Notes: generated from the letters alone by a model not told the origin. A DNA stretch of 64,000 bases from an archaeon (GCA_043822125.1 JBDRCB010000006.1:123520-187519), one strand, 5' to 3'. Positions 5,113 to 33,501 are shown, counted from the first letter of the stretch. Made by a program: numbers and translations.

Positions 5113-5263
5113 AGGAACAGAAAGTTTAAATAAATTTGTCTTAAATTATTTAGTCATAGTCATCGAACCACAAATCAAGATGCTGGGCGTTATCACTTCT
5201 ACCAGACCCCCGCTCCGAACATTTAGATTTAAGAAAATAAGAGCTTAATAAACAACCACAACA

Positions 5264-7195: not shown

Positions 7196-8584
7196 TTAAC
7201 TATTTATATAAATCACCAAAGGATAATCCCTCACAATTAAATCATTAATTGTATTTTCTTCAACTATTAAATTTTGTTCATAACCTTCAAGAACATCAAC
7301 AGCAACAGATTGTTTTCCATTTAACTCGCTGGATGTTAGGTCGGCATTTACTCCTGCATCATCATCAACAGCTACGCCGTCTGTCCATAATACAATTAGC
7401 TTGTCTCCGTTTGATAAAGAGAAAGTGTAATATTCGATGTTTGTTGCTTGGCTTTGTATTTCTATTTCTAGGTTTGTTGGAGTTGCCCCTGCCATGATTG
7501 TTGCTAAGTTTTTAACAACTTTCATCTTTGGTAAATTATCTCCAGATTCAAGTTCACCCATTCCTGCAATTAAACCCAAACCTAAGTTAATAATAATTCC
7601 TCTTGCATAATATTTTGCAGCTGTAATCTCAGTATATATCCAGGATTCATCTGGGTGTGGATTTCTTGCAGTCCGCCAGCACATTTCATCAACCAGATAT
7701 TCTCCAGTAAAACCATTAGAAGAAGATGTGCTTTTTATTCCCTGAATAAAAGAAGGATAATCATAATAATACTGTTTGAGGGCCTCATAATCTGGTGAAG
7801 TTCCATACATAGAATGGAAAGAAATTCCATCTGCTAAAGTCATTATTTCAGATTCTATAAGACCAAGAAAATATTCTTCAGGCTCTGTCTGACGCAAATC
7901 TGAAACAGCCCCAATAATTATCTTGGCTTCTGGGTCTTCTTGTTGAATAACAGGAACAACTCTCTTAACCAAATTAATATAATCATCTATTTTCACATTC
8001 TGTTGAGTGCCTTCACAATGATTCGGTTCATTTAATATTTCATAATAATCCACATATCCTTTTAGATTACTGACAATAAACTGCACATAATCAAGATAAT
8101 TTTGTATTTCTTCTTCTGTTTTAAATTTAGAATATTCTTCTCCTTCAGTTTCAGTGTCAATTGTTTCATCCCAAAAAATTAAAGTATACACTATTTTTAT
8201 GCCTTTTTCATCTAATTTTTTAATCGCTTCTATTTGATTTGGATCAATAAAATGTGTAGAGTATACTCCTTTGTCTTCTGCTTCATCCCAATCAAACCAA
8301 TCAAAACTTAAACGAATTCTGGTTAGTCCTAATTCATTAACTTCATCGAGAAAATAATTTAGGTGTCTTTCAGAATAAATATCTGCTTGCAACATACGCC
8401 CCATATGATTATCTTCTAATTCTTCAGATGTTTTTGCTTGGAATTGAGTTATCTCTAATGTGTTTTCTTTTTGGAACCATTCTTCATCTTCTACAACAAA
8501 CTTATCTCCACTAAAATAAATATATCCAACTACACCTACAATAATAACTAATGCTATAATTACAAATATCACACTCTTTTTCAT
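7196..8584 (-). CDS. Glycoside hydrolase family 5-like (cellulase superfamily), membrane-anchored or secreted
   Basis: N-terminal TM segment. EILNEPNH (GH5 NEP acid/base motif). Candidate nucleophile region GELESG. Confidence 0.5.
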   Translation of the reverse strand: MKKSVIFVIIALVIIVGVVGYIYFSGDKFVVEDEEWFQKENTLEITQFQAKTSEELEDNHMGRMLQADIYSERHLNYFLDEVNELGLTRIRLSFDWFDWDEAEDKGVYSTHFIDPNQIEAIKKLDEKGIKIVYTLIFWDETIDTETEGEEYSKFKTEEEIQNYLDYVQFIVSNLKGYVDYYEILNEPNHCEGTQQNVKIDDYINLVKRVVPVIQQEDPEAKIIIGAVSDLRQTEPEEYFLGLIESEIMTLADGISFHSMYGTSPDYEALKQYYYDYPSFIQGIKSTSSSNGFTGEYLVDEMCWRTARNPHPDESWIYTEITAAKYYARGIIINLGLGLIAGMGELESGDNLPKMKVVKNLATIMAGATPTNLEIEIQSQATNIEYYTFSLSNGDKLIVLWTDGVAVDDDAGVNADLTSSELNGKQSVAVDVLEGYEQNLIVEENTINDLIVRDYPLVIYINS

Positions 8585-8589: not shown

Positions 8590-10140
8590 CTATCTAATAC
8601 AAACACCATCTTGACAACCATTTGGGCAGGAATATGAAATTGAACTAACCCCATTATTATCCCCGCAAAAACCTTCTGCTAATTTTTTATCATCTATACA
8701 AGTGTCAATATGATACTGAGTAAAACCAGTGGTTTGGTGTTTTCCAACTACAGTTCCTTTAACATAATAATCCCTTCCTCCATCAGAATCTGCGCATTCT
8801 CCTTCAAACTCTTCTTTTGTTACCCACTCAGAAGGTGCCCCCTGCACACACTCGCCATTTTGGCAGACACATTCCCCATTTTGACAAACATGCGCATAGT
8901 CGCAACCATTTCTTTTTCCTTCACAATCTGAACATGAACAATCTTCATTTGGCTGATCACAAATAGAGTCTGAATTACAAATTATACATGCACCATCTTC
9001 GCAACCATATGGACAAACATACTCCTCAGAATATCTTTCATTACGCGTTACCATACTCATGGTTGTTGGACACACCCACTCTGTTAATGTGTCTCCATCA
9101 CAGGAGTCTCTCTCTATTCCCTCTTCAGCCTCTCCTGTTTTAATAGTTATAATTTTATACTCTACTGTTCCTTTCCTATAATAATAATTTAACATATCGA
9201 GGAACATACCTTCTTCATGAGTGCTTCTTAAATGTGCAATATACTCTGGTGAATAAAGTCCATCAGAATCATCACAACACCATTTTGTTTTATAATTCCA
9301 ATAACTACCACCGCCAGTACAAGGATATGCTTGTGCAGGATATGATGGTAAATCATCACAAGGTTTATCAGGAGTACAGTAACGAGGAGGAGCAGTTAAA
9401 AGTCCACTTTTAATCAGTTCATTACATTCTTCTGCTGTTGTTGCTCCTGCTTCTTGACAACTTGCACTAATAATAAATATTGAATCAGGACTTAAATTTT
9501 CTGGAATATTTATAATTATACCTTCTAATTCTTCCAGCATCTTTATTGCCTCAGCTATTGCATCAGTATAATCTGGTTGACCAAAGTCCTCAAATCTCTG
9601 CTTAAGTATTTCTAATATTTCAGCATGACTCTGAATATGCTCATTTAATTTCATAGCATCCTTTTTCTTTACCCTTTCCGTTGAACCTTCAAACTTTTTC
9701 ATTTGTTTTTGTGCTTCTAATTGTGCTTTTTTTGCCTCTGTTGTTTTATTCTTATTAGCCATTTCATCCATTTCAGCCATTCTTTCCTGCATTATCTCTA
9801 ATCTAACTTTAGATTTACCTAAAGAAGTTGGAGTTAAAGTTGCTTTTGCATTATCTAAAAAAACATCTGCACCATAAAGTACACTATCAGGAGTTATGCC
9901 TGCTTTTGGCATCATATCAGCCAGTTCTTCATCTTCTTCACTTATATTAATTTCTGTCTCATTGGTTGTTTCATTAGTTTCTGTCACATTAATCTCAGCA
10001 GTCTTATTAGCTTCTGTTTCATTAGTAGGAGGAGTTGCATTACCAATTTCTGTCTCATTAGATTCAGCACTTACAAGACTAACAGAAATCAACAATATCG
10101 ATATTGCTACTAAAATAAATACTATGCCCTCTTTTTTCAT
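8590..10140 (-). CDS. Secreted protein with an N-terminal N-glycosylation-sequon-rich Thr/Glu region, a central coiled-coil and a C-terminal Cys-rich domain (hypothetical)
   Basis: Signal peptide MKKEGIVFILVAISILLISVSLVSA. Many N-x-T/S sequons. The C-terminal ~250 aa contain more than 30 Cys. Confidence 0.45.
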   Translation of the reverse strand: MKKEGIVFILVAISILLISVSLVSAESNETEIGNATPPTNETEANKTAEINVTETNETTNETEINISEEDEELADMMPKAGITPDSVLYGADVFLDNAKATLTPTSLGKSKVRLEIMQERMAEMDEMANKNKTTEAKKAQLEAQKQMKKFEGSTERVKKKDAMKLNEHIQSHAEILEILKQRFEDFGQPDYTDAIAEAIKMLEELEGIIINIPENLSPDSIFIISASCQEAGATTAEECNELIKSGLLTAPPRYCTPDKPCDDLPSYPAQAYPCTGGGSYWNYKTKWCCDDSDGLYSPEYIAHLRSTHEEGMFLDMLNYYYRKGTVEYKIITIKTGEAEEGIERDSCDGDTLTEWVCPTTMSMVTRNERYSEEYVCPYGCEDGACIICNSDSICDQPNEDCSCSDCEGKRNGCDYAHVCQNGECVCQNGECVQGAPSEWVTKEEFEGECADSDGGRDYYVKGTVVGKHQTTGFTQYHIDTCIDDKKLAEGFCGDNNGVSSISYSCPNGCQDGVCIR

Positions 10141-10152
10141 AATGTTAACAAC

Positions 10153-10173
10153 AAAAAGAAGTTTAAATAATTA
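10153..10173 (-). promoter_or_regulatory. Shared promoter element AAAAAGAAGTTTAAATAATTA (plus strand; contains a TTTAAATA TATA-like box) upstream of the secreted-protein gene 8590..10140. An identical copy at 14648..14668 lies upstream of 13097..14635
   Basis: 21/21 identical sequences, both ending 20-33 nt upstream of the minus-strand start codons. Confidence 0.45.
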
Positions 10174-10189
10174 TTGGACGCCCACGTCG
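10174..10189 (-). repeat. Duplicated 3'-end fragment of tRNA-Asp (TTGGACGCCCACG.CG), 15/16 identical to 15008..15023
   Basis: Compared by eye with the tRNA-Asp 3' acceptor and trailer sequence. Same orientation. Confidence 0.45.
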
Positions 10190-10277: not shown

Positions 10278-12407
10278 TTATGCTACAGAAAATCTTAACA
10301 ATCTTTCTGAAAATTTAAATTCTCCAACCCAAAGGTAACTTCCATCATAAGCAAGAGAAGTCGACCAGAATAATTTGCCTTCTTTTGTACTTGGAATTCT
10401 GCCTTTTTCTCCTAAAAATATATCTGCTTGCTCTCCGAGGAGTGCATCTTCAATATCTGTCCAAATATGAACCGCATTAAATCCAGTATCTCCCACAAAT
10501 AAATGTCCATCATAAACTAAAACTCCTTGGGGAAGATTAAACATTCCAGTAAGAACATTTTGTTTTGCATTTGGAAGTTCATTAATTTTGTATATTAAAA
10601 TAGAACCCCCTTGTCCAAGAACAGAATTCACAACAAGATATTCTCCATCACTTGAAATTCTTGAAGGTCCTTCAGCATCCAAACTAAAGAGAGGATTCGA
10701 GATTCCATCAGGAATTCCTTCCCAAACATAAATCTTATTTGCTAAATTATCTGTAAGATAAAAATACTCATCGTCCATAGCAACTCCTTGTAAATCCTGA
10801 AATTCAACATTTCCAATTTTATCTCTAAAAACCAAATCAGGCAACTCCCCATTAAGAGGAAGATTATTCCAAATAAAGACTGTTTTCTTCCCAGCTAAAG
10901 TTAAAACATTGTTATAAATGGCATTATCCCAAGGAGCATCAGTAAGTATGTAAACAAAATCTGGATTAGCCCCACTTTCATCAGGCAAAGATTTCCAAAC
11001 ATATAATTTCCTGTCAAAATCAGAAGAAACAAATAAACTATTTCCATCTGTTGCAGGAACAGGATTGCTAATTATAAATTCTGTTTCAAGGGTGTTTGTG
11101 TAAATATCTGAACTTCCTATTGAAAAATCGGGTTTTTTTGAAACTGTGGGCAAATTACTATATCCGACAATTTTATTTCCATTACAAAGAGAAATGTAAA
11201 GTTTTCCTTTGACATAGACAATACTTGAACCATCCCCACTTTCTTTTCCCCCAAAATCATATATATCACCATTTATTGAAAAATCTGCTTCATCATTTTC
11301 ATCTTCAGGAAAACTATCCCAGACATATAATTTATCACTAACAACTATAAATTTTCCGTCTTCTGTAAATATCGGTCCCCACATTATTTCTCCATCTCTT
11401 TTTTCACTCTGAGCATTTGACATAAAAAAATCATACTGCTGATTATCTTGTGTTGGAAATGTTTTCCAAAAAAAGTTTCCTTGTGAAGACTTAAAAGCAT
11501 TATGGTCTCCTATTACCAAATTTGTGCCGTCACTTCCAATTGTCCTCGGTGTACCAAAATCATCTAATTTTATGACTATATCTGGCTCTTGATTATCTTG
11601 GATGGGGAAAGTATTCCAAATTAAAACTTGTGAAGAAGCAGTACTTGTAACAATCATTTTTTCTCCATTTGTCCAAACTGCCCAAGGCCAGGCAATATTT
11701 CCTTTTATGCTTGGGTCATCTAAACCCTGAAGAACAATATCTGCGGGTTTACCGTTGGTTGTGGGAAAAGTATTCCAAATAAGAATTCTGTGGTTGTAAG
11801 TATCTGCAACTATAAGGTGAATTCCATCAGTTGCAACTGATACGGGCCAGTTTAATTTGTCTAAACCACTTCCCGGATTATTTGTAAAAAAATTATCCTG
11901 CCCAAGAACAATATCTGGTTCTGAGTTCTCTTCAGGAAGAGAATTCCAAATAAGAATTCTATTGTTATTTCTATCTGCTAATATTAAATGTTCTCCATCA
12001 CTTGCAATACCCCCTTGATGATTAAAAAGCAAAGGACCCCCTGCATTGTTAAAATCAATGCCTGAAAGAAGGACATCTGCATATTGTTGATTTGAAAACC
12101 ATCCTGCCGGTTTTGTAACAACAGTTTTGTAGTTTGAATTTAATCTTTCTACAGATACTTCTTGTTGTCCAAGAGAGGGAGAATTATCTAAATTAAATTC
12201 ATCATCTTCGTAAATTCCTAAACAATCTGGTTTGTAACATCCACTATCAATATTTTGTTTTTCAAATTCATCGCAAATACCATCACAACCCCCTTTCTGG
12301 AGGGTTATATTATTTTCTTTTTCTGAATCAGAATTTAAAAGGTAAATACCAACACTTAATATTAAAACTATTGCAATAATTATTCCAATCATCACACTTC
12401 TTCTCAT
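10278..12407 (-). CDS. Secreted beta-propeller repeat protein (NHL/YVTN-like repeats, recurring xIWNxxP motif)
   Basis: Signal peptide. Repeats NNRILIWNSLPEEN, NHRILIWNTFPTTN, SQVLIWNTFPIQDN, TVFIWNNLPLNG, KIYVWEGIPDG. Confidence 0.5.
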   Translation of the reverse strand: MRRSVMIGIIIAIVLILSVGIYLLNSDSEKENNITLQKGGCDGICDEFEKQNIDSGCYKPDCLGIYEDDEFNLDNSPSLGQQEVSVERLNSNYKTVVTKPAGWFSNQQYADVLLSGIDFNNAGGPLLFNHQGGIASDGEHLILADRNNNRILIWNSLPEENSEPDIVLGQDNFFTNNPGSGLDKLNWPVSVATDGIHLIVADTYNHRILIWNTFPTTNGKPADIVLQGLDDPSIKGNIAWPWAVWTNGEKMIVTSTASSQVLIWNTFPIQDNQEPDIVIKLDDFGTPRTIGSDGTNLVIGDHNAFKSSQGNFFWKTFPTQDNQQYDFFMSNAQSEKRDGEIMWGPIFTEDGKFIVVSDKLYVWDSFPEDENDEADFSINGDIYDFGGKESGDGSSIVYVKGKLYISLCNGNKIVGYSNLPTVSKKPDFSIGSSDIYTNTLETEFIISNPVPATDGNSLFVSSDFDRKLYVWKSLPDESGANPDFVYILTDAPWDNAIYNNVLTLAGKKTVFIWNNLPLNGELPDLVFRDKIGNVEFQDLQGVAMDDEYFYLTDNLANKIYVWEGIPDGISNPLFSLDAEGPSRISSDGEYLVVNSVLGQGGSILIYKINELPNAKQNVLTGMFNLPQGVLVYDGHLFVGDTGFNAVHIWTDIEDALLGEQADIFLGEKGRIPSTKEGKLFWSTSLAYDGSYLWVGEFKFSERLLRFSVA

Positions 12408-13096: not shown

Positions 13097-14635
13097 TTAA
13101 TCAACTACTCCTGGTTCTCCAGGCCCCTCGTCAACTCCTGCTACATCATTACTTCCTGTATCACCAGATGATAAATCTCCACTACTAACAACAGTGTTAT
13201 CAACAACATTATTTCCATCACTTGTTACAACTCCTTGCTTATCTCCATCAACAACATTATTCCCACTATCTCCTCCACCAGTTACAACTCCTTGCTTATC
13301 TCCTTGGATAACCATTCCAGAATCTCCTGTATCATGAGTTCCCTGAGCAAAAGTTCTCACTGCTATTTGATTTTTAATTTCATTCATTTCTTGCTTTATT
13401 TCTCTAGCTTTATTGCTTACTTCCAACCCTCCTTCTTCAACACCCCATTCGCCTTCATCTACTGTCCAATTACTTTCATCAATTGTATGTTGTGCAGACT
13501 TATTTTCAAATTCATCAATAACGTTTTCAACTTCTTTTCCAATAATATAATTTATTAAGCCCTCTTCGTTTTTAATTATTGTAATCTCTCCACATTTTTC
13601 CTCTAAAAAATTATCGTTTTCATCAAAACATTGTGGGATTGATTCTTTCATTGTTGGTATTTGCTCATCACATTCTCTTTCATGCCCGATATAATTTCCA
13701 TATTCATCCCAATCAGCACTTGTTTCTTTTAGATGTTCATATTGTTTGCATTCTGGCTTATCATTTTCATCCCAGCATTCTTCTGGAACTCCACATGAAT
13801 GTTCTATTTTATAGCCAATCATCTTGCTCTCTTTTTCTCTGAATAGATTAATTAAGAAATCTGGAACAAAACTTTCTGCAAAACCATCTCCTTTTTCTGG
13901 TTCCATTGATTTTAATTCATTGCAGGAACTCTCATCATCATTATACTCGCATTTGAGTGCAAGAGCAACCATTTTTTCACACTTTGCTTTTTGTTCTTCG
14001 TCAACATTATTTTCACAATTACAAGTTCCAGGATCATCTATGCAACTCCTAATTTCTAACATTAATTTAACAAACATTCTTTCCTGAAGGTCTTTTAATT
14101 TTTCTAAATCATCTTTAAGTGGTTCAGGGGCAGTTTTAGGATTACATTCTTCATCTTTTAACATTAAAGCAAAATCTTCTTTTGCTAATTCACTGCAATA
14201 TTCATAGGTTTTTTCAGTAAGAACTGCTGTAAGTTGAGTTTTTTCTTCTTCTAAAATATAATCGTCAAATTCGTCTGAAAGATTTTCCTCTTGATTTATT
14301 TTATCAACAATTTCATCAACATTTGTTTTAACCTCTTCAGAATTGTCTAAAGAAACTTTTTCTTGCACAATCTGGAGTTTCTCTTTTGCTTTTACCAGAT
14401 TTTGAATTGCTTTATCTTCTTCTTGATTTTGGATATTTATAATAGCGGAATTAATTTCTTTTTCTCTAATCTCTAACGCCAACCTAACTTCGTTATCTCC
14501 TCCAGAAAAAAATAACTTAACATTATCTACAAATCTGCCAAAACCAGAATATGTTCGAGCTTGTTCTTGAGCCAAAATCAAGGGTGAAACCAATAAGATT
14601 CCTAATAAAATTAAAACTATCATCTCTTTTTTCAT
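13097..14635 (-). CDS. Secreted acidic coiled-coil and Cys-containing protein with C-terminal GDKQGVVT/NNVVD repeats (hypothetical surface protein)
   Basis: Signal peptide MKKEMIVLILLGILLVSPLILA, paralogous to the signal peptide of 8590..10140. C-terminal Gly/Asp-rich repeats. Confidence 0.4.
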   Translation of the reverse strand: MKKEMIVLILLGILLVSPLILAQEQARTYSGFGRFVDNVKLFFSGGDNEVRLALEIREKEINSAIINIQNQEEDKAIQNLVKAKEKLQIVQEKVSLDNSEEVKTNVDEIVDKINQEENLSDEFDDYILEEEKTQLTAVLTEKTYEYCSELAKEDFALMLKDEECNPKTAPEPLKDDLEKLKDLQERMFVKLMLEIRSCIDDPGTCNCENNVDEEQKAKCEKMVALALKCEYNDDESSCNELKSMEPEKGDGFAESFVPDFLINLFREKESKMIGYKIEHSCGVPEECWDENDKPECKQYEHLKETSADWDEYGNYIGHERECDEQIPTMKESIPQCFDENDNFLEEKCGEITIIKNEEGLINYIIGKEVENVIDEFENKSAQHTIDESNWTVDEGEWGVEEGGLEVSNKAREIKQEMNEIKNQIAVRTFAQGTHDTGDSGMVIQGDKQGVVTGGGDSGNNVVDGDKQGVVTSDGNNVVDNTVVSSGDLSSGDTGSNDVAGVDEGPGEPGVVD

Positions 14636-14694
14636 AAAAATAACAATAAAAAGAAGTTTAAATAATTAACTCCCAATCAAGAGAGTAGAAGGAG

Positions 14695-22351: not shown

Positions 22352-22420
22352 GTTTTTGGTTGGGAAAAAGAAAAGGCTTTGAAATTTATTATAGATTCAT
22401 AACTATTAGCACCCTTTAAC

Positions 22421-22440
22421 TTAACAAAGCCAAAACCCAG
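22421..22440. repeat. Left copy of a ~21-bp direct repeat TTAACAAAGCC(C)AAAACCCAG. It forms a perfect 9-bp hairpin (AACAAAGCC-loop-GGCTTTGTT) directly after the ATPase gene
   Basis: 20/21 identity with 31470..31490. The hairpin was verified by eye. Confidence 0.6.
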
Positions 22441-22611
22441 GCTTTGTTAAATAAGTCCTAATTTTAGTTTACTTTTTTAACAGAATTTCTAAGCACTTAG
22501 AATAAAATTAAATCCAAGAAGAACCAATATAGCGACATACCAATATTTATTCACAAAATCAAACCATTCCATAAAAGAAATTATACTTACTTATTAAAAA
22601 ATGTTTCTATT

Positions 22612-22761
22612 TTATATTTTCTTTTCATCCTTACATTTAGGACATTTCTTCGCTTTACCTTTCTTGTAAGGAAAGTGTCCGTGCTTGTCATAGAACTCTA
22701 AGTCATCTGTGCATCTCTTAATTAATTCTGGTGTTACTTTCTGAAATTTTTGTTTAGTCAT
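22612..22761 (-). CDS. 49-aa zinc-ribbon-like protein translationally coupled (ATGA overlap) to the upstream nuclease gene
   Basis: Hand translation gives MTKQKFQKVTPELIKRCTDDLEFYDKHGHFPYKKGKAKKCPKCKDEKKI (C...H.H...CxxC). It is below the ORF-track size cutoff. Confidence 0.3.
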   Translation of the reverse strand: MTKQKFQKVTPELIKRCTDDLEFYDKHGHFPYKKGKAKKCPKCKDEKKI

Positions 22762-24224
22762 TTAGCAATCTCCCTCAAAGCATTAACAATTTCAACTTCT
22801 GCCAGAGTATCTAAACAGCAATATTTCTCTAAAGCATCTCTAACTTTTTGTCGGTCTTCTTCTGAAACATCATTATAAGTAACTCGTGCAAATTCAAAAC
22901 TCGCAACATCACCTTTGGAAATATCCATTCCATCGTATTTTAAATCTGAGTGCAAAGGCAGAACTTTCTTTATACTAACCGAACCTTTTTGTTTGGAATC
23001 ATAATAATAGAATTTATCAAAAACTTCCATCAAATCTTTTATTCTTGGTAATAAGTTATCTTCTATTAATTCCTTATATTCTGGGAAAAATTCAGCAAGT
23101 TCTTTCAAAACCATCTTTTCAAACCTTTGATTATAAACCAAAATGTCTCCCTTATCGCCAAGATTATCTTTCAATGATTGAATTAATGTAGGTCTTGGGT
23201 CTTTTGTCCCTTCTGCCAAGAAAGAAATGTGTTTTAATTCTCCATTTGGTTTATCTTGAATATGCAAACTAAACTGAAAAGGAATCTGTTGATAAGGTCT
23301 TGAATTATCAAATCTTGGAACTGCTGAGCTAATTGTTTCAAAATCAAAATAATAAATTGGATATTGTAAGTTATCCAAAAACTCTTTTATTTGTTTTTTG
23401 TCAATATGCTTTTCTCCATTTTCTGCAACATATTTCTGAATACTTTGTTTATCATTAAGTTTAAACCAATTTGGAATATCAACCATTTTAATTATTCCTT
23501 CTTTGTAAAGTGGAACTGCTTTTTTCTTTAAAATTCTAACAAACTCAAAAATATTATTTTCTGGTAGAGATTCCATAAATTCATCTTTGGCGATATTGTC
23601 ATATTCAATAGTTAATAAATCATCAACTTGAAACTCTGGACATTCTCCATTAATACAATCTAACATAGTCATTGCTCTTGACTCTACTTTTTCAATAGAT
23701 TCAACTTTCTCTGTAACTTCTGTCTGCATTAAAAGTTCTTTAGAATTAATTTCTCCTTGTTTCACATAATCAGGATTTACATGGAGAACAAAACATTTTC
23801 TTATTTTCAAACCTGATTTTTCATAAACATATTTTTGGAAAGCCAAATCTTCTAAGTGAATTTTCTTAGCTTTTGTTGAACTCTTAACTTCAATAATATC
23901 CCATTTATCATTTTCAACAGGCAAGAGAATATCTCCTCTTGAATATAAATCTTCATGTAGAAAACTCGCCTGAAATAAAGGAACTCTTTTTTGTGTATGT
24001 TCTTTAGTCTTTTCTACTTGTTCGTCAAATTTAAATTTAGATAAATCAACAATATCGGGAAAAAGCTGTTTAGCATATTCTTCAATTACATAACCTTCTT
24101 CAAATCGTGCCTTGTCTAACTCTGTTAGCTCAGGTATTCTTTCTTTGTCGTTTTTGTTAATCCAAAGCCACCTCAAACATTGAATCCCACAAATGTAGTC
24201 GGATTTTGTTAGCATTTTAATCAC
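22758..24224 (-). CDS. RecB/Cas4-family PD-(D/E)xK nuclease domain protein (N-terminal nuclease plus ~300-aa uncharacterised C-terminal region, DUF2779-like)
   Basis: GDILLPVENDKWDIIEVKSS (D...EVK) and FQKYVYE (QxxxY) motifs. N-terminal CGIQC and C-terminal CC cysteines. It overlaps the specificity-subunit gene by 8 nt. Confidence 0.5.
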   Translation of the reverse strand: MIKMLTKSDYICGIQCLRWLWINKNDKERIPELTELDKARFEEGYVIEEYAKQLFPDIVDLSKFKFDEQVEKTKEHTQKRVPLFQASFLHEDLYSRGDILLPVENDKWDIIEVKSSTKAKKIHLEDLAFQKYVYEKSGLKIRKCFVLHVNPDYVKQGEINSKELLMQTEVTEKVESIEKVESRAMTMLDCINGECPEFQVDDLLTIEYDNIAKDEFMESLPENNIFEFVRILKKKAVPLYKEGIIKMVDIPNWFKLNDKQSIQKYVAENGEKHIDKKQIKEFLDNLQYPIYYFDFETISSAVPRFDNSRPYQQIPFQFSLHIQDKPNGELKHISFLAEGTKDPRPTLIQSLKDNLGDKGDILVYNQRFEKMVLKELAEFFPEYKELIEDNLLPRIKDLMEVFDKFYYYDSKQKGSVSIKKVLPLHSDLKYDGMDISKGDVASFEFARVTYNDVSEEDRQKVRDALEKYCCLDTLAEVEIVNALREIAK

Positions 24225-25317
24225 TTAGAATCTCAACTTTTAAATTTATTATTCTTTGGTAATTTTCTCTAATCCTTTCTTTAATTTCCTCAACTAAATT
24301 ATATTTTTCTGCAATTTCTTTTTGTTTTTCTAAATCAAACTCTCCCTTCTCATCAATTGGAACATTTATATTTAAGATGTACAATTTTTCATCTCCAACT
24401 TTATTTTTCCAATTAAATCCTTTTTCTTTAAAGAGGATTTTTAGTTTCCATAATAAAAATTCATAGTCTAAATGATTTGATTTTTTAACTAATAATTTTG
24501 CATCAGAATTAATACTAAATTTGTGTTTTGGTCTATAGAAGATTGTTCCAGCATAAACCCCATTTGTTGTTATTTGAACACATTCTATATTGTAATCAAA
24601 AGAATTTATACTCCCGAGAATCCCATTATTTTTTGTATTTGAAGAATAAACTGGGAATTCTCCCTCATTCACATTAACATATTTTTTTGTATATTTTGAA
24701 TTTCCCTTTTTCAGTTCAAAAATTTTATCAAAGGAAAAATTTTCTTTATTTCCCTCTAAAATTATTTCTACATTTAAATTTTCTATTCTATCATAATCTA
24801 ATTTTAATTTATCTTTTATAGATTCTATTTTATTGAATTTGCTTACTATCTCCTTTTGCTTTTCCAAATCAAATTTTCCATCTTTTCTTAATGGGATTTT
24901 TATTTCTAAATTTCTTAGTTTTCCTTTGTATAGTTTATTATTCTTATTAAGTCCCAATGAAGGAAGTATGTTATTTATTTCAATTGCTACAAAAGGGAGA
25001 TAAATTTCATCAGATTTTGTTATAATTATATTTAAGACATCATTGGCATAGAAAGTTTCATCTCTAAAGAAAGCCGAATAATCTGTAGCATCCGCATTAA
25101 TAGTTATACATTCTCCAGAAAATTTTTTAGATTTTGGAACAATTTCCTTTATTTTATCCGAAACAAAACCTAATGATTCTCCTTTGTATTTTGATGAACT
25201 ATATACTGGAATATTTCCTTCTGCTTTATTTATGTCTTCTTTCCTTATTCTTTCTCCGTTGTCTACCTGAAAATACTTCTCGTCTCCTAAACTAATTTTT
25301 GTAAAAGAAGTCTCCAT
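24217..25317 (-). CDS. hsdS: Restriction-modification specificity (S) subunit with two target-recognition domains
   Basis: Duplicated conserved regions GKFDLEKQKEIVSKFNKIESIKDKLKLDYDRIENL and GEFDLEKQKEIAEKYNLVEEIKERIRENYQRIINL separate two variable domains. It overlaps the upstream methyltransferase gene. Confidence 0.75.
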   Translation of the reverse strand: METSFTKISLGDEKYFQVDNGERIRKEDINKAEGNIPVYSSSKYKGESLGFVSDKIKEIVPKSKKFSGECITINADATDYSAFFRDETFYANDVLNIIITKSDEIYLPFVAIEINNILPSLGLNKNNKLYKGKLRNLEIKIPLRKDGKFDLEKQKEIVSKFNKIESIKDKLKLDYDRIENLNVEIILEGNKENFSFDKIFELKKGNSKYTKKYVNVNEGEFPVYSSNTKNNGILGSINSFDYNIECVQITTNGVYAGTIFYRPKHKFSINSDAKLLVKKSNHLDYEFLLWKLKILFKEKGFNWKNKVGDEKLYILNINVPIDEKGEFDLEKQKEIAEKYNLVEEIKERIRENYQRIINLKVEILSD

Positions 25318-27497
25318 TATAATTCCTCCAAAATTTTACTTAGTTCCTCAAAATCATTTTGTATATTTTTTATTTCTTCTTTAAATTCTTCAATAGTTAT
25401 TACTTCCTCTTTTTTAGTTATCCCAATCTTTTCTTTCTCTTCTTTTTTCCACCATCTTTCAATAATCCAGTGTTTTTCTTCATCAAATTTATCAAAAGGA
25501 ATCATTTTACAACGAGGGTCATCAGAATCAAATGTTTTAGGGCTTCCTTTAGACTGATTAAATAAATTCTTTGCTTTATCTAAATCATTTTCTTCTATTT
25601 CAAATCTATCAACATTCAATTTTTCTCCAATATTGGAAACTAAATAAGTGAATACAGGGAAATCTTGAATTTCTTTTTCATCATTCTTTTTTGTTATTAC
25701 CAAAATATATGTTTTTTGAGGGGTATTGAAAAATGTTTTCATAGGAAGAGAGATAACTGCATTAACATAACAATATTTTTTTACTTCATCTCTCATCTTC
25801 TGATTAACAGGCAGATTAAAAATGCTATCAGGAAGTATAATAAAAGCAGTACCTTCTTTCTTTAGGTTTGATAAAATCCATTTTAAACTTAATCCTTGAA
25901 CCCCTGCACCACTATTTGAATAAAAATCCTCCAAACCTTCTTCTTCAATTTCTTTTCTTATTGTACTCATACCGCTTGTTATATAAGGCGGATTTGTCAA
26001 AATTAAATCTGGTTTATCTTCTTCGTCATCAAACATCTCTCTAAATGTTCCCAAATTTGAATCAGATAAAAAGTGAAAAGTTTCATTAATTAATTCGGAA
26101 AATTTATTGGTAAGGGTGGGATTTTTTTCAACCAAATCTGAAAGATAAATTAGCATATTTGCTTTTGCCAAAATTATTGTTCTTCTTTGTTCATCATTAT
26201 CTTCTCTTCCACTATCATAACCCAACAATTTAACACTGGAATTAATCTTGCCTCCTTTAGGTGTAAACTTATTTTTTATACTTGAAGAGATTTGGAAAGG
26301 CTCCAACACGAATCCTCCCACCCCACAAAAAGGGTCGCAGATAAATTTGGACTTGTCAATATCTGCCATCTCAACGATAGATTTAACCACTTTTCTTGGA
26401 GTGAAGAATTGCCCCAATTTACTTTTATCTTTACTCTGTTTCAAAAATGTTTCAAAAAGTTTTGTTTTAAACTCTTTTTTTATGTGTCTCAAATCTCCGA
26501 ATTTCTGATATTTTTCAATTGTATCTTTAAATAATGTTGCTTGAGACAGCACAGGGGTTCCATCTTTATTAACAAATATTGTTCCATTTATTATTCCTGT
26601 TTGGTCATTTCCAGCAGGAAATAATTCTTTTATTTTCTTTCTACACTTTGTAGCATAATGTTCAAGAACTTCTTTGTTGGGATAGCCTTCATTATACATT
26701 TTTATAAGATGATTAAAACTATAATCTCTTTGCAAAACACCCAAATCACTCAAAAACTTAAATATGAAAACCTCAACAACATTATAAAGACAAGCAGTTG
26801 GATTATCCTTTGTACTTATATAGATGCTTTGCCAAACATTTTTTGCGAGAGGTGTGGGGTCTGTCTTTTCCGTAGCTTTTAAAATTGAATTGTCTTTATC
26901 TGTTTCAAGAAGAACCCTTTCAATAGTTTGATATGTTTCTTTTGTGTCGTCATCAAATTTATTAATATCTTTTTGATTCTTTTCTTTCAAATAGAATTTC
27001 TTTTGTAGTTTCTGTTTATCATCATTTAGTATAAAAGAATAGCTTCTTTTTCTTCCAAATTCATCTTTATAAGAATTTGTTTTATCTTCATCATTTGGAT
27101 TTATCCAATGAGTAACAATACCGTCGGTGATTACCCCCATTTTTGCATTTAACACTTGGCACACATCGTTACATTGTTCAATGGCTTTTTTCTTTTGTTT
27201 GTCTGTTTGAAATTCCTTTGGTTTTTTCCATTCTATAGAAACTAAAACTTGAGGAACTTTTTTATTTCTCCTATCCACTACTAAACCATCTGCTCTCCTT
27301 TTTTCATAGTCCCCATAACTCTTTTTTTCAATAACCCTGCTTGATTTGTATTGTTTTATTGTTGTAGAATGTAACGGAAAGAATTCATACTCTCCAACAA
27401 AGATTCCTTGCTTATCTAATCCTCTTGAAATCTGCTCTTCACTTGCCATATATTTAACAGGTTTTTTCCCTTTATAGATTTTTCCCTTGCGATTCAT
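25317..27497 (-). CDS. N6-adenine DNA methyltransferase (gamma class) with a ~230-aa N-terminal extension that may be a PD-(D/E)xK endonuclease. Candidate BcgI-like Type IIB restriction-modification A subunit, or an HsdM-like protein
   Basis: QFFTPRKVV (motif X), DPFCGVGGFV (motif I FxGxG), LILTNPPY (motif IV). The N-terminus has D-x(n)-E-x-K (LVVD...VSIEWKK). There is no helicase-type HsdR anywhere in the operon. Confidence 0.7.
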   Translation of the reverse strand: MNRKGKIYKGKKPVKYMASEEQISRGLDKQGIFVGEYEFFPLHSTTIKQYKSSRVIEKKSYGDYEKRRADGLVVDRRNKKVPQVLVSIEWKKPKEFQTDKQKKKAIEQCNDVCQVLNAKMGVITDGIVTHWINPNDEDKTNSYKDEFGRKRSYSFILNDDKQKLQKKFYLKEKNQKDINKFDDDTKETYQTIERVLLETDKDNSILKATEKTDPTPLAKNVWQSIYISTKDNPTACLYNVVEVFIFKFLSDLGVLQRDYSFNHLIKMYNEGYPNKEVLEHYATKCRKKIKELFPAGNDQTGIINGTIFVNKDGTPVLSQATLFKDTIEKYQKFGDLRHIKKEFKTKLFETFLKQSKDKSKLGQFFTPRKVVKSIVEMADIDKSKFICDPFCGVGGFVLEPFQISSSIKNKFTPKGGKINSSVKLLGYDSGREDNDEQRRTIILAKANMLIYLSDLVEKNPTLTNKFSELINETFHFLSDSNLGTFREMFDDEEDKPDLILTNPPYITSGMSTIRKEIEEEGLEDFYSNSGAGVQGLSLKWILSNLKKEGTAFIILPDSIFNLPVNQKMRDEVKKYCYVNAVISLPMKTFFNTPQKTYILVITKKNDEKEIQDFPVFTYLVSNIGEKLNVDRFEIEENDLDKAKNLFNQSKGSPKTFDSDDPRCKMIPFDKFDEEKHWIIERWWKKEEKEKIGITKKEEVITIEEFKEEIKNIQNDFEELSKILEEL

Positions 27498-28762
27498 CTT
27501 ATCACCTCTTTCTCAACAACAAACTCTCCCCTAACTCCGAGTTCATTTATTTCCTGAATAATTACGCAAATGTTATGGCAAAGAATTTTTAAGAGAAGTT
27601 CGTTGATTTGTGCTGTCTTAGTTTTAGAACGAAGATTATCTTTAAACTTCGTCTTAATCATGTGGAACACCGTCTCAACATTACTCCTCTTATGATAATG
27701 TTCTAAAAACTCATCATGCTTGTAAATAAAATAATGATACATTTTTTTCCATATTCCACAACTTGCTCTTTTGCCACGAACATTTTTCTTAAAGGGAATG
27801 AAGGGGACAGCACCAACATCCTCAATCGCTTGTAAGTTCTTACGAGAACTGTAAGCCTTGTCTCCACTTACTTCGCCCACCCTAAAAGTCTTAGCTGTCT
27901 CCTCAACTAAGCGAGGCAATGAAGGACTATCATTCACCTCTCCTTCAGTAATTTCACATCCAGTTATAATGTTAGTTTTTGTTCCTGAAATTAAATGTGC
28001 CTTTAACCAAACTCTATATTTTCTTTCCTTTCCCCATTTTGTATCAAACCATCTCGCAAATCTTGAAGTAGAAAAACCTGAACTGTCAACTGCAAAATTT
28101 GTTTCAAATTCTTTTAATGGACTTGCACTAATAGAGATTAATTGTTTTAGAATTTCTGTTAAATCTTCTCTTTGCATAAAATAACAAATATTAGCATAGG
28201 TGCAAGTTGTTTCAACAAGATTCATTTCTTTTGCTATCTTGAAATCAGAGATAAATCTTCTTAGACTAAAAGTGGAATAAACTTTCAATGCAGAGGCAAA
28301 CAACATATCTGAAATTGGAAGTGTTGGTCTTCCAAATTTATATTCTGGTTGTTCAATATTACCACATAAATCTTTGAGCAATTTCATAAAAATTAATTTC
28401 TCATTTGTCTGTGCATTATTGTAAGCCTTCCAATCCTGTTGATAAGAAATTTTAACTCCTTTTGTTTCTGTTACTTGTCCTTCTTCATTTATCTGTCTCT
28501 TTACATAAAATTCTACTGCGTAAATATGCTTACACTTTTTATGCCTCATAGCACAATCAGGACAAGAACAAACTGGTCTGTCTTTCATAAGTTTCACTAC
28601 ATATTGTTTTGAAGTATTTGTTTGGGAAGTGACTCTCCAACCTTGAGAAACTTTTACTATTCTTGTTGATTTAGCCAAAAGCTTTCCTCGTTCTTCTCTT
28701 GTGAGATTCTTCCAATCTGTTTTTAATGTTTGTTCCATTTTATATAATTCGGTACCATACAT
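27494..28762 (-). mobile_element. IS4/IS5-superfamily DDE transposase with N-terminal SWIM-type zinc finger (insertion-sequence transposase gene)
   Basis: CSCPDCAMRHKKCKHIYAV (SWIM CxCxnCxH). DDE residues in VDSSGFS / GDKAYSS / Y-x2-R-x3-E-x6-K (YHKRSNVETVFHMIK, the YREK signature). Terminal inverted repeats were not identified by eye. Confidence 0.7.
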
Positions 28763-28795
28763 ACTTTATATACTTTTCGGTACCACAAAATATAC
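28749..28795. repeat. Two tandem imperfect copies of a TCGGTACCA(N)A..TAT.ACTTT element spanning the transposase start codon and the upstream region of gene 28819..29403. A third copy lies at 30912..30930
   Basis: TCGGTACCATACATACTTTATATACTTT / TCGGTACCACAAAATATACTTTAG. The third copy is GTCGGTACCATAATTTATAT immediately before the ATG of the HEPN gene. Confidence 0.45.
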
Positions 28796-28818
28796 TTTAG
28801 AAAGGTTTATATAGTTAA

Positions 28819-29403
28819 ATGGTTTTACTAAAACCATTAAGAAAAATGGTAGTAAAACCTAAGACAGAATTAAATGAGAAGGAGATATTCAGTTTATCTC
28901 GTGATGATAGAGAATTATATATCCAGAGATATATTTTAAGTTTATTAGAATCTAACAAGACCTCTGGACTAACCTTGAATACTCTCAATCGCTTGGTTAC
29001 TTTTGTTAGTAAACCTACTTTACTTAAACACCTGAATACATTAATGGCTAAAAGACAAATATACAAGGTTAAAAGAGGAAATGCGGTTGAATATTATCCA
29101 AATCATAGACCATTGCATCCTTTAATAAGCAAAATCATAACTCTTCAAAAAAAGAAATATAAATTCCAATTAATTGAATACGAAGATGGATTACAATTAT
29201 ATATACAAGAAATTAATAGAAATGTTTATGGAAAAGAAGAGGTTGCTGGAGGAATTTTGATACCCTTTACAGATTTAAACCAAATAACTACTTATCTCCA
29301 AAAAATAGAAAAAGAAAAATTAAAAATAATTGAAAATTTTAAACAGCAAAAAATAAAAGAGATAGAATCTAAAATAGATGGGGAAGAATACAATGAGTAC
29401 TAA
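28819..29403 (+). CDS. Winged-helix DNA-binding protein (putative regulator)
   Basis: wHTH-like segment YILSLLESNKTSGLTLNTLNRLVTFVSKPTLLKHLNTLMAKRQIYKVKRGNAVEYY. Its 3' end overlaps the next gene by 26 nt. Confidence 0.4.
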   Translation: MVLLKPLRKMVVKPKTELNEKEIFSLSRDDRELYIQRYILSLLESNKTSGLTLNTLNRLVTFVSKPTLLKHLNTLMAKRQIYKVKRGNAVEYYPNHRPLHPLISKIITLQKKKYKFQLIEYEDGLQLYIQEINRNVYGKEEVAGGILIPFTDLNQITTYLQKIEKEKLKIIENFKQQKIKEIESKIDGEEYNEY

Positions 29404-30715
29404 TCTAAAAAATTCAGTTTATGCAGTAAGTCAGGAATCAGATTACCTCACAAAAAAAGTCAGATACGAAAATAAGGTCAATGGAAAATTATTAATTATG
29501 CCCCTATTTTCTCCTTATATAAGAAGTTCTTTTGATTTGAAGATTCTTACCAAGTATATTTCAGATTATAATTATTCTCATAATTTAAGGGGGATTGTTG
29601 TGCCTATAGATAGAGCTGATTTATTAGATAAGGTTCCAGAAACTATGAAAAATACTTCTCTTGTGATTATAGATACACTTCCAGAAGTTTTTTATTATGG
29701 TTCTCTGAAAAAAGAAATTTATCAAAGGTATTCAAAAATTTCTGGATTACCTAAAGAAATAGTAAAGTTATTACAAACGCCAAATAATACACAAAATTGG
29801 GCTTCAAAAGAAGACCAATATTCAGAGATGATTGATTCAATTTTATTAGAAGATGATGTTAGGGTTAAACTAACTACGGCTGTAATAAATGCACAATTAG
29901 AAAAAGATGTGGATATAGTAATACCTTTCTCTCCTTTAATATTAAATGATTCAGTAAGTTTTCTTGCAACCCAAAGATTTTATGAACAGGCTCAAAGATT
30001 ATTTTTAGGAACTATAACAGATATAGACGAAGAACTTGGAAAGAGAATAGCATTACCTTTATTCCTTCATGAATCCATTCTATTTAATACAAAATTAATA
30101 AATCAAATTATTAATTATATTAATACCAATGAACATGCCTCAATTGTATTAAAAATATACTTTTCTGGAAATAAAAATGTTAAAGATTTAGATTTTGACC
30201 AAGTTATAAATTTATCAAATTTACTAAAAGCTATAGGGATTTATTCCAAATTTAATTCCTGCCCCGTACACTTACTTTGTGATTTATCTCTTGGATTAAT
30301 TTCTCTAATGTATGGATTTGATAGTTATTCCCAACCATTTAATGATAAGCAAATTGAAACAGAAGGAGCTCCAGATATAACAAAATTAAAATTAAGGAAT
30401 CCTACAATTGATTATGGAAAAATCTATAGTATGGATTTAAGGAAAAAAATTTACCACAAAAATTATGTCGCTCATATAAAATATAATAAAAATATCCTTC
30501 CATGTCCTGCAAATAAATATTGCAACAAACACATAAGTGGTTTAGATGTTTTAAATATGAAAAGACATACCTTTTGGGAACATGCAAGACTTCATAATTT
30601 AGAGAGTAAAAATTATGAGATAGATGAGATATTAGATTCAATACGGGAAAAAACTATTAGAGTCTTTAAAAGTAGATTTAATAACTTTTTTAATCAAGCA
30701 ATACTCCCAAATTAA
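29378..30715 (+). CDS. Uncharacterised 445-aa protein (no recognisable catalytic motif; C-terminal Cys/His cluster CPANKYCNKH...H...H)
   Basis: Long ORF in a low-GC genome, coupled to the upstream wHTH gene. Internal repeat-like PLFSPYI / PFSPLIL segments. Confidence 0.45.
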   Translation: MGKNTMSTNLKNSVYAVSQESDYLTKKVRYENKVNGKLLIMPLFSPYIRSSFDLKILTKYISDYNYSHNLRGIVVPIDRADLLDKVPETMKNTSLVIIDTLPEVFYYGSLKKEIYQRYSKISGLPKEIVKLLQTPNNTQNWASKEDQYSEMIDSILLEDDVRVKLTTAVINAQLEKDVDIVIPFSPLILNDSVSFLATQRFYEQAQRLFLGTITDIDEELGKRIALPLFLHESILFNTKLINQIINYINTNEHASIVLKIYFSGNKNVKDLDFDQVINLSNLLKAIGIYSKFNSCPVHLLCDLSLGLISLMYGFDSYSQPFNDKQIETEGAPDITKLKLRNPTIDYGKIYSMDLRKKIYHKNYVAHIKYNKNILPCPANKYCNKHISGLDVLNMKRHTFWEHARLHNLESKNYEIDEILDSIREKTIRVFKSRFNNFFNQAILPN

Positions 30716-30930
30716 TTCTTTGATTTTTCAATAATAATTTTTCCTTTCTCAGCCCTTACATGAAGCCTCTTACCTAAAAGACCAGAAATTTTTACAATTT
30801 CTTTTGGTATTGATGGAATCATATATTTTTTGTATTCTTTATCACCAACCTTTTTATTAGATACTTCTGCAATTTTCATTAATTAAATTAGAATAATAAT
30901 ATTTATAAATATGTCGGTACCATAATTTAT

Positions 30931-31446
30931 ATGGAAAGAACTAATGAAATGTTAAAGTTGGGCGAAGCATTTGTTAATGAGGGGATTAAAAGGTTGAAGG
31001 AATATAAAATAGAAAGACCAAATTTTATATATGACCGACACAAAATGATTATAAAAAAGAGATTTGCTGTTGTTGAGTTTATTAATGGATTAGAATTAAT
31101 TCTAAAGGCGGTTATGATAAGAAAAGGGTATAATATCTATATCTTAAAAAGGAAATTATTCAAAAAGAATGAGAAGATGTCTAACATGATTAATCCAAAA
31201 AGAACTATAGATTTATTGGATGTAATTGAATTTTTTAGAAAAAATTATCGTGATTTACCTTTCAATGGGATTGATGAACTAAGAGAAATAAGAAACCAAA
31301 TTGTCCATAAGGGAACTGAAATAGGGACAAAAAAGAGAGAATATTTTATTGATTCAATAAATTGTATAATTGGTATATATAGCCAAGAAGGAATTAAACA
31401 CAGAAAATTCTTAACACAGCTGGAGGGGTCAAAAGAACTTATTTGA
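30931..31446 (+). CDS. HEPN-domain protein (canonical R-x4-H motif)
   Basis: LREIRNQIVHKG near the C-terminus, all-helical composition, 171 aa. Confidence 0.5.
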   Translation: MERTNEMLKLGEAFVNEGIKRLKEYKIERPNFIYDRHKMIIKKRFAVVEFINGLELILKAVMIRKGYNIYILKRKLFKKNEKMSNMINPKRTIDLLDVIEFFRKNYRDLPFNGIDELREIRNQIVHKGTEIGTKKREYFIDSINCIIGIYSQEGIKHRKFLTQLEGSKELI

Positions 31447-31469
31447 CTTTTTTAACAAGGGCTACTTAT

Positions 31470-31490
31470 TTAACAAAGCCCAAAACCCAG
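31470..31490. repeat. Right copy of the ~21-bp direct repeat bracketing the 22.4-31.5 kb island (no complementary hairpin half here)
   Basis: TTAACAAAGCCCAAAACCCAG, 35 nt upstream of rps10. Confidence 0.6.
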
Positions 31491-31524
31491 AAACCTTTAA
31501 AAACCAGAATAAAATATTTCTTAT

Positions 31525-32634: not shown

Positions 32635-33501
32635 TTAATTTATTTGTTGTTGGGATGGATTTGAAAAGATTTTTTCTAAAATTCTTGATTTCTCCTCACG
32701 GGTCCAGACAGTAATTTTAGCGTCTGGTTCATTAAAAGAAATGTCCCATGCTCTTTCAGGACTTAAATTTAATCTGTAAACATCAACCTTTCTTTTATCA
32801 AATCTCTCCAATGAACTTTCAATCTCTCTTTCATCATAAAAAGATTTGAAAACAACTCTGTCAAACCCCCTGTATGCTAAAAGATTATTTGTGCAGTCGT
32901 TGCATGGAAAAATAGTTGCATAAACAGTAAAACGGTTTAAGTTTAGTCTTGTTATATGCGAGGCAGCATTTTGCTCTGAATGAGTTCCCCAGCATTTTCC
33001 TGTTCCATGAGTAATTCCATATTTCTCTCCTGTTGCTCTTTCTTTTCTGCAGTAGCCTAAATCCAAACAGCTCTCTAAACCAGGAGCAGCACCATTATAC
33101 CCGCTTCCAAGTTCAAGATTAGTCTTACTATCAACAATAACAGTTCCTGCATGAACATTCAAACAAGAAGACCTTCTCGAAGTATCAATTGCCTTTAACA
33201 TAAAATATTCGTCCCACGACGGACGAATATCATTTCTTTCTTTTAAATTTACCATCCCAAAATCAGTAACAAGAGTTTCCCCATCTCTCTGAAAAACCTC
33301 TGTGTGTTCATAATCTCCTAAAATAACATCACCACATTTTAATGCATATTTTGTTTTCAGTCTAGGTTCAAAAGATATCCCCACAGATTCTTCTTTTAAT
33401 TTAATAATCTCAATCCTGCCTTTTAATTTTTTATTAGACTTCTTTAAATGTTTTAAAACAGAATCTAACTTTTTATATATGTTAATCATACATAAATACA
33501 A
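32635..33501 (-). CDS. dCMP deaminase (CDA-fold, ComEB-like) with a ~95-aa N-terminal extension of unknown function
   Basis: RPSWDEYFMLKA...HAGTVIV, zinc ligands HSE...PCNDC. Confidence 0.7.
   Translation of the reverse strand: MYLCMINIYKKLDSVLKHLKKSNKKLKGRIEIIKLKEESVGISFEPRLKTKYALKCGDVILGDYEHTEVFQRDGETLVTDFGMVNLKERNDIRPSWDEYFMLKAIDTSRRSSCLNVHAGTVIVDSKTNLELGSGYNGAAPGLESCLDLGYCRKERATGEKYGITHGTGKCWGTHSEQNAASHITRLNLNRFTVYATIFPCNDCTNNLLAYRGFDRVVFKSFYDEREIESSLERFDKRKVDVYRLNLSPERAWDISFNEPDAKITVWTREEKSRILEKIFSNPSQQQIN

Follow-up and report, generated by a model that had tools for sequence, protein, structure and literature searches.

An insertion sequence (IS) that carries passenger genes along as an integral part of itself is defined as a transporter IS (PMC9330008). 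Among other described elements, IS903B makes 9-bp direct repeats (PMC10569121), IS30 and IS911 insert beside their own inverted repeats (PMC9333248), and mobile restriction-modification units lie between inverted repeats with a short target duplication and were recognized by comparison with empty sites (PMC2853133). We analyzed a stretch of 64,000 nucleotides of archaeal DNA (GCA_043822125.1 JBDRCB010000006.1:123520-187519; "the window," to which all coordinates refer unless another contig is named), in which some 9 kb of accessory genes separate a P-type ATPase gene from rps10. Positions 22440-31480 very probably constitute a single 9,041-bp DDE transposon with cargo, moved by its own IS903-like transposase. 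Apart from a 100% identical ATPase on a 199-kb contig of a metagenome-assembled genome labelled "archaeon," the nearest homologues of the ATPase, none more than 68% identical, come from records labelled Nanoarchaeota or Pacearchaeota; the source of the window is a DPANN archaeon.

Boundaries and insertion site

The proposed element is delimited by a pair of 17-bp inverted repeats, each with the same 9-bp sequence directly outside it. The features at the two ends are:

22431-22439, left target-site duplication CAAAACCCA, directly outside the terminal repeat and identical to the right copy
22440-22456, plus strand, left inverted repeat (IRL) GGCTTTGTTAAATAAGT, the left boundary and the end far from the transposase start; 17/17 complementary to the right inverted repeat
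22471-22483, plus strand, subterminal inverted partial repeat ACTTTTTTAACAG, 14 nt inside IRL
31446-31462, minus strand, inner degenerate tandem repeat GCCCTTGTTAAAAAAGT, 14/17 match, 1 nt inside the right inverted repeat
31464-31480, minus strand, right inverted repeat (IRR; ACTTATTTAACAAAGCC on the plus strand), the right boundary and the transposase-proximal end
31481-31489, right target-site duplication CAAAACCCA, directly outside the terminal repeat
31486-31504, plus strand, CCCAGAAACCTTTAAAAAC, host sequence conserved upstream of rps10 and intact after insertion

This is the only pair of full-length repeats in the window, and it occupies the outermost boundaries; no inverted repeats are found immediately around the transposase gene, the true ends being 5-6 kb and 2.7 kb away. 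An orphan transposase, suggested at first by the absence of nearby repeats, was ruled out by these distant ones. A 27-aa hydrophobic open reading frame (ORF; MEWFDFVNKYWYVAILVLLGFNFILSA, 22489-22572, minus strand) lies just inside the left end. In the course of events that we propose, the transposase would bind the terminal and subterminal repeats and mobilize the whole segment; insertion would begin with cuts staggered by 9 bp between ATPase and rps10, at a point 8 bp upstream from the conserved, presumed rps10 promoter motif TTTAAAAA, and repair of the resulting gaps would leave the 9-bp duplication CAAAACCCA.

Three relatives carry the ATPase gene directly before rps10 and provide empty sites for comparison:

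L088, ATPase 68% identical, ATPase-rps10 spacer of 86 nt
L089, ATPase 66% identical, ATPase-rps10 spacer of 48 nt
L081, ATPase 64% identical, ATPase-rps10 spacer of 41 nt

The genes further to the left (encoding a 213-aa protein and a Na+/H+ exchanger) and to the right (S10 and a 99-aa protein) are also common to the relatives. A preliminary description of the window had proposed an island bracketed by a 21-bp direct repeat, and had expected the empty site to show ATPase and rps10 adjacent with a single copy of that 21-mer; the adjacency is indeed found in all three relatives, but the first 16 nt of the 21-mer are absent from each of them. The host sequence CCCAGAAACCTTTAAAAAC, which runs from the end of the duplication into the right flank, is identical in L081 and near-identical in L089, where it directly follows or overlaps the ATPase stop codon; it is presumably the BRE/TATA promoter (transcription factor B recognition element and TATA box) of rps10. 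A contig scan with the window ATPase returned bacterial P-type ATPases only, at 32-37% identity, and look-ups of the exact ATPase and S10 proteins of the window gave no record for either. In a separate lineage (P0005; L082 3360-3830, L083 and L084), a non-coding stretch of about 480 nt follows the ATPase gene in place of rps10; its GC content appears to be above that of its surroundings, and it might be a structured RNA or a relic.

The inserted segment also differs in composition from the rest of the window: its GC content is 28.65% versus 33.1% elsewhere, below the minimum of 31.5% for other 9-kb windows, and its tetranucleotide distance is 0.224 versus a maximum of 0.197 elsewhere. Within the segment the GC content of individual genes ranges from 0.25 to 0.33. 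Judged by these sequence comparisons, the 9 kb between ATPase and rps10 is a genuine horizontally acquired insertion. The earlier view of the genes between the repeats as accessory and of the flanking genes as housekeeping was correct, and from its reading as an acquired defence island with flanking target duplication the insertion, the foreign composition and the defence-type cargo all hold; the 21-bp length and att nature of the duplication do not, the duplicated sequence being 9 bp.

The transposase and related elements

The enzyme to which we would attribute the movement is encoded inside the element:

27494-28762, minus strand, transposase of 422 aa, an IS5-family, IS903-like DDE enzyme with an N-terminal SWIM zinc finger

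The catalytic residues D226, D301 and E363 are intact and the Y-2-R-3-E-6-K signature is present. The annotated form has 414 aa, and the real start is probably residue 9 (ATG, 28736-28738). Pfam matches are DDE_Tnp_1 (1.9e-24) and SWIM (1.3e-4). The preliminary description had placed the enzyme in the IS4 family, an assignment that has to be replaced by the IS903-like branch of IS5: the best NCBIfam model is IS5_2 (NF033579, 6.9e-38), with IS4_1 reaching merely 40 bits, and in BLASTP residues 110-397 align with residues 25-308 of the IS903B transposase (E 2e-11), D226, D301 and E363 falling on the DSTG, DGAY and RRSIAE motifs of IS903B and the YREK signature aligning too. Plasmid matches of the transposase are ISAba13/IS5-type genes. 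The transposase stop codon overlaps the start codon of the methyltransferase gene that follows it (ATGA, 27494-27497), an apparent translational coupling.

The ends point the same way: over 18 bp the left end is 16/18 identical to the IS903B repeat GGCTTTGTTGAATAAATC and the right end 15/18, the IS903B ends and gene having been verified in plasmid Rts1. Measured against the IS903 group, the window element has a homologous DDE transposase, a 9-bp duplication and repeats of the GGCTTTGTTGAATAAATC type, about 18 bp long; it falls short of the curated cutoff of the IS5 model, and at 9,041 bp with about nine other ORFs it lacks the single-gene structure of about 1 kb. It is an IS903-type (IS5-family) transporter IS or unit transposon.

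The terminal repeats came to light through relatives of a 445-aa cargo protein, which led to L101, a contig whose transposase is 48% identical and occupies the same divergent position. A repeat search there revealed 18-bp inverted repeats, GGCTTTGCCTAATAAGTC, around the whole 4.5-kb unit, and this repeat closely resembles the right half of a palindrome at the left junction of the window (described below) together with the next bases. A transposase search then yielded thousands of homologues, at roughly 6,900 loci, and three further elements could be read from end to end. A viral-sequence scan with the single transposase sequence returned nothing; an alignment-based viral scan with the transposase led to L107, on an IMG/VR "viral" contig. 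The related elements are:

L101, transposase 48% identical, 4,525 bp, perfect 9-bp duplication GTAACAAAG
L104 (7152-12684), transposase 90% identical, repeat identical to that of the window, 5,533 bp, duplication GTTCTCGGT
L105 (9728-16038), the same as L106 (5135-11445), transposase 81% identical, repeat GGCTTTGTGTATAAAGT, 6,311 bp, duplication GCTTTAGTC
L107 (7357-11281), transposase 63% identical, repeat GGCTTTGTTTAATAAGT, 3,925 bp, duplication CTTTCTGTA

Across the five homologous elements, including that of the window, the duplicated 9-mers are unrelated in sequence. The architecture of the ends recurs: L104, L105, L107 and L101 have an inverted partial subterminal copy at the equivalent position, and the inner tandem copy lies 1 nt from the terminal repeat in the window, L104, L105 and L107 and about 10 nt from it in L101. 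In all five elements the subterminal copies co-vary with the terminal repeat of their own element, and we take them to be putative transposase-binding sites. L101 and the window also share their gene order, with the far end followed by the transposase gene on the minus strand, the gene pair for a winged helix-turn-helix (wHTH) protein and the 445-aa protein, and the near end.

Junction repeats and alternative explanations

The near-identical 20/21 repeat noted in the preliminary description is present at both junctions, with the left copy TTAACAAAGCCAAAACCCAG at 22421-22440 and the right copy TTAACAAAGCCCAAAACCCAG at 31470-31490, one inserted C being their sole difference. The claim that it is far beyond chance for 64 kb was too strong. 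If a pair is counted when it has 20 or more matched bases and no more than one mismatch or indel, a dinucleotide shuffle of the window contains 0.71 direct-repeat pairs on average; one or more turn up in 55/100 shuffles, and there are 10 in the real window. The 21-mer is significant because it is located in both junction spacers, which were set independently from the empty sites of the relatives: when the two spacers are aligned locally, their score of 17.5 was matched in 2/5000 shuffles and in 0/4935 random segment pairs. No sites for the 11-mer arm exist in the window beyond these, and no further copy of the 21-mer was found there; nor did a scan of the JGI metagenomes give a related copy, its six matches being unrelated coding or higher-GC (38-51%) sequence and attributable to chance.

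The composition of the two copies explains their likeness. The right 21-mer consists of the last 11 nt of IRR (TTAACAAAGCC), the 9-bp duplication and a host G; the left 21-mer consists of TTAACAAAGC, outside the element, the duplication and the first G of IRL. TTAACAAAGC is an exact copy of the repeat tip and is aimed tip-to-tip at IRL, and because this outside copy faces the left repeat across the duplication, a perfect hairpin is formed at the left junction alone. Of the perfect palindrome TTAACAAAGCC-AAAACCCA-GGCTTTGTTAA, the left copy makes up the left arm and the loop; the stem has 11 bp (9 bp in the preliminary description, which had rightly called the palindrome perfect) and the loop 8 nt, with a folding energy of -9.9 kcal/mol (z = -4.15). 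The hairpin had been called terminator-like; a terminator scan made no call there, and the palindrome is not followed by a T-run. As had also been seen, the right copy is without the complementary half, but instead of a partial att-type duplication its 11 nt are the tip of the terminal inverted repeat. A viral-sequence scan with the palindrome arms matched unrelated phage terminator-like hairpins only. More generally, what looks like a long att repeat can result where a repeat tip and a target duplication come to lie beside a resident tip.

The resident tip belongs to the target DNA, where one further feature may be of relevance:

22375-22431, possible 57-bp relic in the target DNA, starting with GGCTTTG and ending with TTAACAAAGCC (CAAAGCC)

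The last 11 nt of this segment (22421-22431) are the resident tip copy and the left arm of the hairpin, and the segment may be what is left of an older element. When the empty site of the window is reconstructed, the tip match amounts to 11/11 and extends over the final base of the duplication, with none of 6000 background windows equalling it. In L104, the resident sequence GGTTTTGTTAAATAAGC matches the repeat at 15/17 positions (10/11 in the tip) and overlaps the last 3 nt of the duplication, again with 0/6000 in the background; it stands at the same end as in the window, far from the transposase start, and about 90 nt from a Glu/Gln-tRNA synthetase gene. The tips are spaced 8 bp apart in the window and 6 nt apart in L104. 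These two cases suggest end-targeted, tip-to-tip insertion, in which a resident end-like sequence would guide the transposase to the target and the new copy would be placed beside the resident tip; the target before insertion would then have read ...TTAACAAAGC-CAAAACCCA-GAAACCTTT without interruption.

Given the 20/21 direct repeat at both junctions, site-specific recombination had to be considered, with the 21-mers as attL and attR of a 21-bp core and the integrase lost or acting in trans. The left site even has the core geometry of a tyrosine recombinase, with 11-bp inverted arms and an 8-bp spacer as in Xer sites (PMC2958812). This explanation nevertheless seems to us very remote: domain scans found a recombinase domain in no island ORF of at least 49 aa, an intact DDE transposase matching the ends lies inside the element, and the 11 nt on the right form the outer part of a 17-bp terminal repeat, the partner of which begins immediately beyond the left duplication. 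Moreover, the relatives' empty sites are without most of the supposed core, and the five homologous elements have inverted repeats and unrelated 9-bp duplications with no conserved att core. The preliminary description was right that no integrase is present; the mobilization that it had left unclear is accounted for by DDE transposition with the element's own enzyme. Scarcely credible is a variant that attributes the left palindrome to the host, as a Xer/dif-like site or a transcription terminator, and makes the right copy a partial duplicate of this host element. The same arm-and-spacer geometry and the stable fold of a hairpin placed after the ATPase gene speak for it, but the arm on the right is the tip of the transposon's terminal repeat, no palindrome exists between ATPase and rps10 in the relatives, neither T-run nor terminator call supports a terminator, and neither the window nor the metagenomes hold further copies. 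An integrative mobile element exploiting Xer (IMEX) at a dif site, which would have 11-bp arms and a spacer of about 6 bp, was likewise considered for the 11-8-11 geometry and was dropped, the right arm being the transposon repeat and the relatives' empty sites having no palindrome.

Separate insertions at a hot spot could also have built up a patchwork of restriction-modification operon, IS, wHTH pair and HEPN gene, with the outer repeats contributed by one component. The cargo modules do occur apart, since L098 has the wHTH and 445-aa pair alongside another transposase family and L099 has it with no transposase, and gene GC content is uneven; however, the single full repeat pair is outermost and has a perfect duplication, none is internal around the transposase, an apparent translational coupling ties the transposase to the methyltransferase gene, and L101 has the matching gene order between its ends. 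We hold the patchwork to be highly improbable, and the cargo was probably assembled stepwise inside the transposon. A different doubt concerns only the mode of insertion: the left outside tip may have arisen after insertion, by template switching or quasi-palindrome correction, in which case the insertion was not end-targeted and the transposon call is unaffected. That the outside match ends abruptly at 10-11 nt, that the palindrome is perfect and that 3/5 insertions have no repeat-like sequence in the target all favour such an origin, which we consider unlikely, since L104 has the same arrangement at the same end (15/17 match, 6-nt spacer) and better fits a pre-existing site, and since GGCTTTG, 57 bp upstream in the window, hints at a relic element.

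Several observations weigh against an IS903-like transposon placed by end-targeting, and should be set beside the evidence above. The IS5_2 match has 130.8 bits, below the curated cutoff of 140; the transposase is only 21% identical to that of IS903B; and the IS903 target motif WTTYA-N9-TRAAW is unmatched at the window site and at all other sites. No strain-level empty site was found, the ATPases of the closest relatives being 64-68% identical. End-targeting is seen in only 2/5 insertions, the other three giving no significant match (P = 0.09, 0.29, 0.35), and the relic draws on terminal matches of only 7 nt and 11 nt, with the 9-mers flanking 22375-22431 agreeing at just 5/9 positions.

Cargo and comparison with known systems

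Beyond the transposase gene, the segment contains the following genes and motifs:

22612-22761, minus strand, 49-aa ORF, last gene of the minus-strand operon
22758-24224, minus strand, DUF2779 protein of 488 aa (PF11074, 9.9e-43) with a weak Cas4/RecB-like nuclease signal (Cas4 models about 8e-4)
24217-25317, minus strand, type I restriction-modification specificity (HsdS-like) subunit
25317-27497, minus strand, N6-adenine DNA methyltransferase (HsdM-like) of 726 aa with a weak N-terminal HSDR_N_2 signal (0.0034)
28748-28784, two TTCGGTACC motifs (28748-28756 and 28776-28784), 28 nt apart, in the divergent control region of transposase and wHTH genes
28819-29403, plus strand, 194-aa protein read as wHTH, first gene of a conserved two-gene module
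29378-30715, plus strand, 445-aa protein of a very rare family, second gene of the module
30712-30879, minus strand, 55-aa ORF, AbrB/SpoVT-like by eye only; it adjoins the pair in L098 too (62% identity)
30914-30922, third motif GTCGGTACC, in the divergent control region of the 55-aa ORF and the HEPN gene
30931-31446, plus strand, DUF3644 protein of 171 aa with weak HEPN-like signals

In the minus-strand operon, subunits of the HsdM and HsdS types are present and no HsdR subunit was found among the cargo, which falls short of a full type I system; the DUF2779 (weakly Cas4-like) nuclease takes the place of HsdR. Family searches with the 49-aa ORF gave no matches, and the 55-aa ORF has no Pfam match.

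The 194-aa protein has a single, marginal Pfam match (RNA_pol_Rpc34, E 0.0093, 15.9 bits versus a cutoff of 28.4), and its partners in L098-L102 are 45-68% identical. In the database searched, of 5.8 billion clusters, the 445-aa family has 10 members, and a wHTH homologue always precedes them. No match to the 445-aa protein was found in Pfam, NCBIfam or PADLOC, a PDB-sequence profile search gave nothing meaningful, and a BFVD fold search nothing below E 0.008. Its AlphaFold model, of moderate quality (pLDDT 67.5), is a TIM barrel for which the best solved structures are tRNA-guanine transglycosylases (E 9e-5, TM 0.36-0.42), and this weak resemblance in fold hints that the protein might exchange bases in DNA or RNA as a DpdA-like enzyme. 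The module (wHTH of 183-194 aa, second protein of 435-445 aa) occurs at 28819-30879 in the window, L098 9457-11488, L101 8659-10541 and L099 9440-11308, followed in the window and in L098 by an ORF of 52-55 aa. In L098 it lies inside a different transposon, with an IS6/IS240-type transposase, 24-bp inverted repeats (8253-8276 and 11540-11563, 22/24 matching) and the 9-bp duplication GCTTTTTCA; a very rare two-gene module has thus been found riding as mobile cargo on two unrelated transposon types. The motif (T/G)TCGGTACC occurs in both divergent control regions of the window, and as a pair it flanks the module in L098 (9363-9400 and 11497-11534), which suggests putative operators and an autoregulation that may also affect transposase expression.

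The other elements carry different genes. Two N6/N4 methyltransferases travel on L104, and in one of these, of 786 aa, an NmeDI_C domain is fused to the enzyme. L105 encodes HerA-like and NurA-like proteins together with an AEP-type primase and a protein of 307 aa, and the cargo of L107 encodes uncharacterized proteins of 329 aa and 418 aa. Elsewhere in the window, a 288-aa protein with a cytidine/dCMP deaminase domain (32635-33501, minus strand; PF00383, 2e-13; weak MafB19-like signal) is encoded just downstream of the rps10 cluster, with no counterpart there in L081. A motif ...AAAAGAAGTTTAAATAA... at 10103-10178, 14598-14673, 5101-5133 and 55635-55667, about 25-35 nt before minus-strand starts, resembles the archaeal BRE/TATA promoter consensus of the source genome.

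With these results, an apparent att island without an integrase becomes a fully explained mobile element, and it appears that in host-dependent archaeal genomes of about 1 Mb defence genes can travel on IS-derived transposons. One transposase and its ends carry restriction-modification, nuclease/helicase or uncharacterized modules that differ by genome; the cargo found so far on this chassis comprises restriction-modification sets, HerA-NurA with a primase, and the rare pair of wHTH and transglycosylase-like proteins. It is possible, and offered here tentatively, that DPANN archaea host a large and active family of SWIM-finger, IS903-like transposons that serve as interchangeable carriers of defence and DNA-modification cargo and home tip-to-tip onto resident copies of their own ends. 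If this were so, such homing would create hairpin junctions and might give rise to defence islands at fixed sites, and the rare pair would be a new transposon-borne DNA-modification or defence system. The 17-bp ends, the subterminal sites and the intact transposase offer material for archaeal transposition assays.

Among known systems, IS903 and IS903B share with the window element 18-bp repeats beginning GGCTTTGTT..AATAA..TC, a 9-bp duplication and a homologous DDE transposase, the end sequence being nearly conserved between a DPANN element and the enterobacterial IS903 despite the low identity of the enzymes. Whereas IS903 is about 1.06 kb long with one gene, the window element has 9.0 kb and about nine passenger genes; its transposase has an extra N-terminal part of 110 residues, bearing the SWIM zinc finger, which that of IS903B lacks; its ends are asymmetric, with subterminal repeats; WTTYA-N9-TRAAW is not seen; and its host is a DPANN archaeon rather than an enterobacterium. 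The mobile units of Furuta, Abe and Kobayashi (2010; PMC2853133) similarly have restriction-modification genes between inverted repeats with a short duplication; unlike in those units, the transposase in the window is identified, intact and matched to the ends, and the set has a DUF2779 nuclease, no HsdR and other cargo besides. IS30 and IS911 resemble the insertions in the window and L104 in that they insert tip-to-tip beside sequence like their own repeats, in fixed orientation (PMC9333248); they move by copy-out-paste-in, with repeat junctions 2-3 bp apart, whereas the two elements here are IS903-like, with tips 6-8 bp apart and a normal 9-bp duplication. Like a transporter IS or unit transposon, the window element encloses its passenger genes between one repeat pair with one transposase, and it differs from these in that a single chassis (81-92% transposase identity, identical or near-identical repeats) bears differing cargo in each genome. 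The novelty is one of degree and not of kind, and lies in how large and varied the cargo on one DPANN chassis is, in the SWIM-finger transposase, in the near-conservation of IS903 ends across domains and in the apparent tip-to-tip targeting of resident ends.

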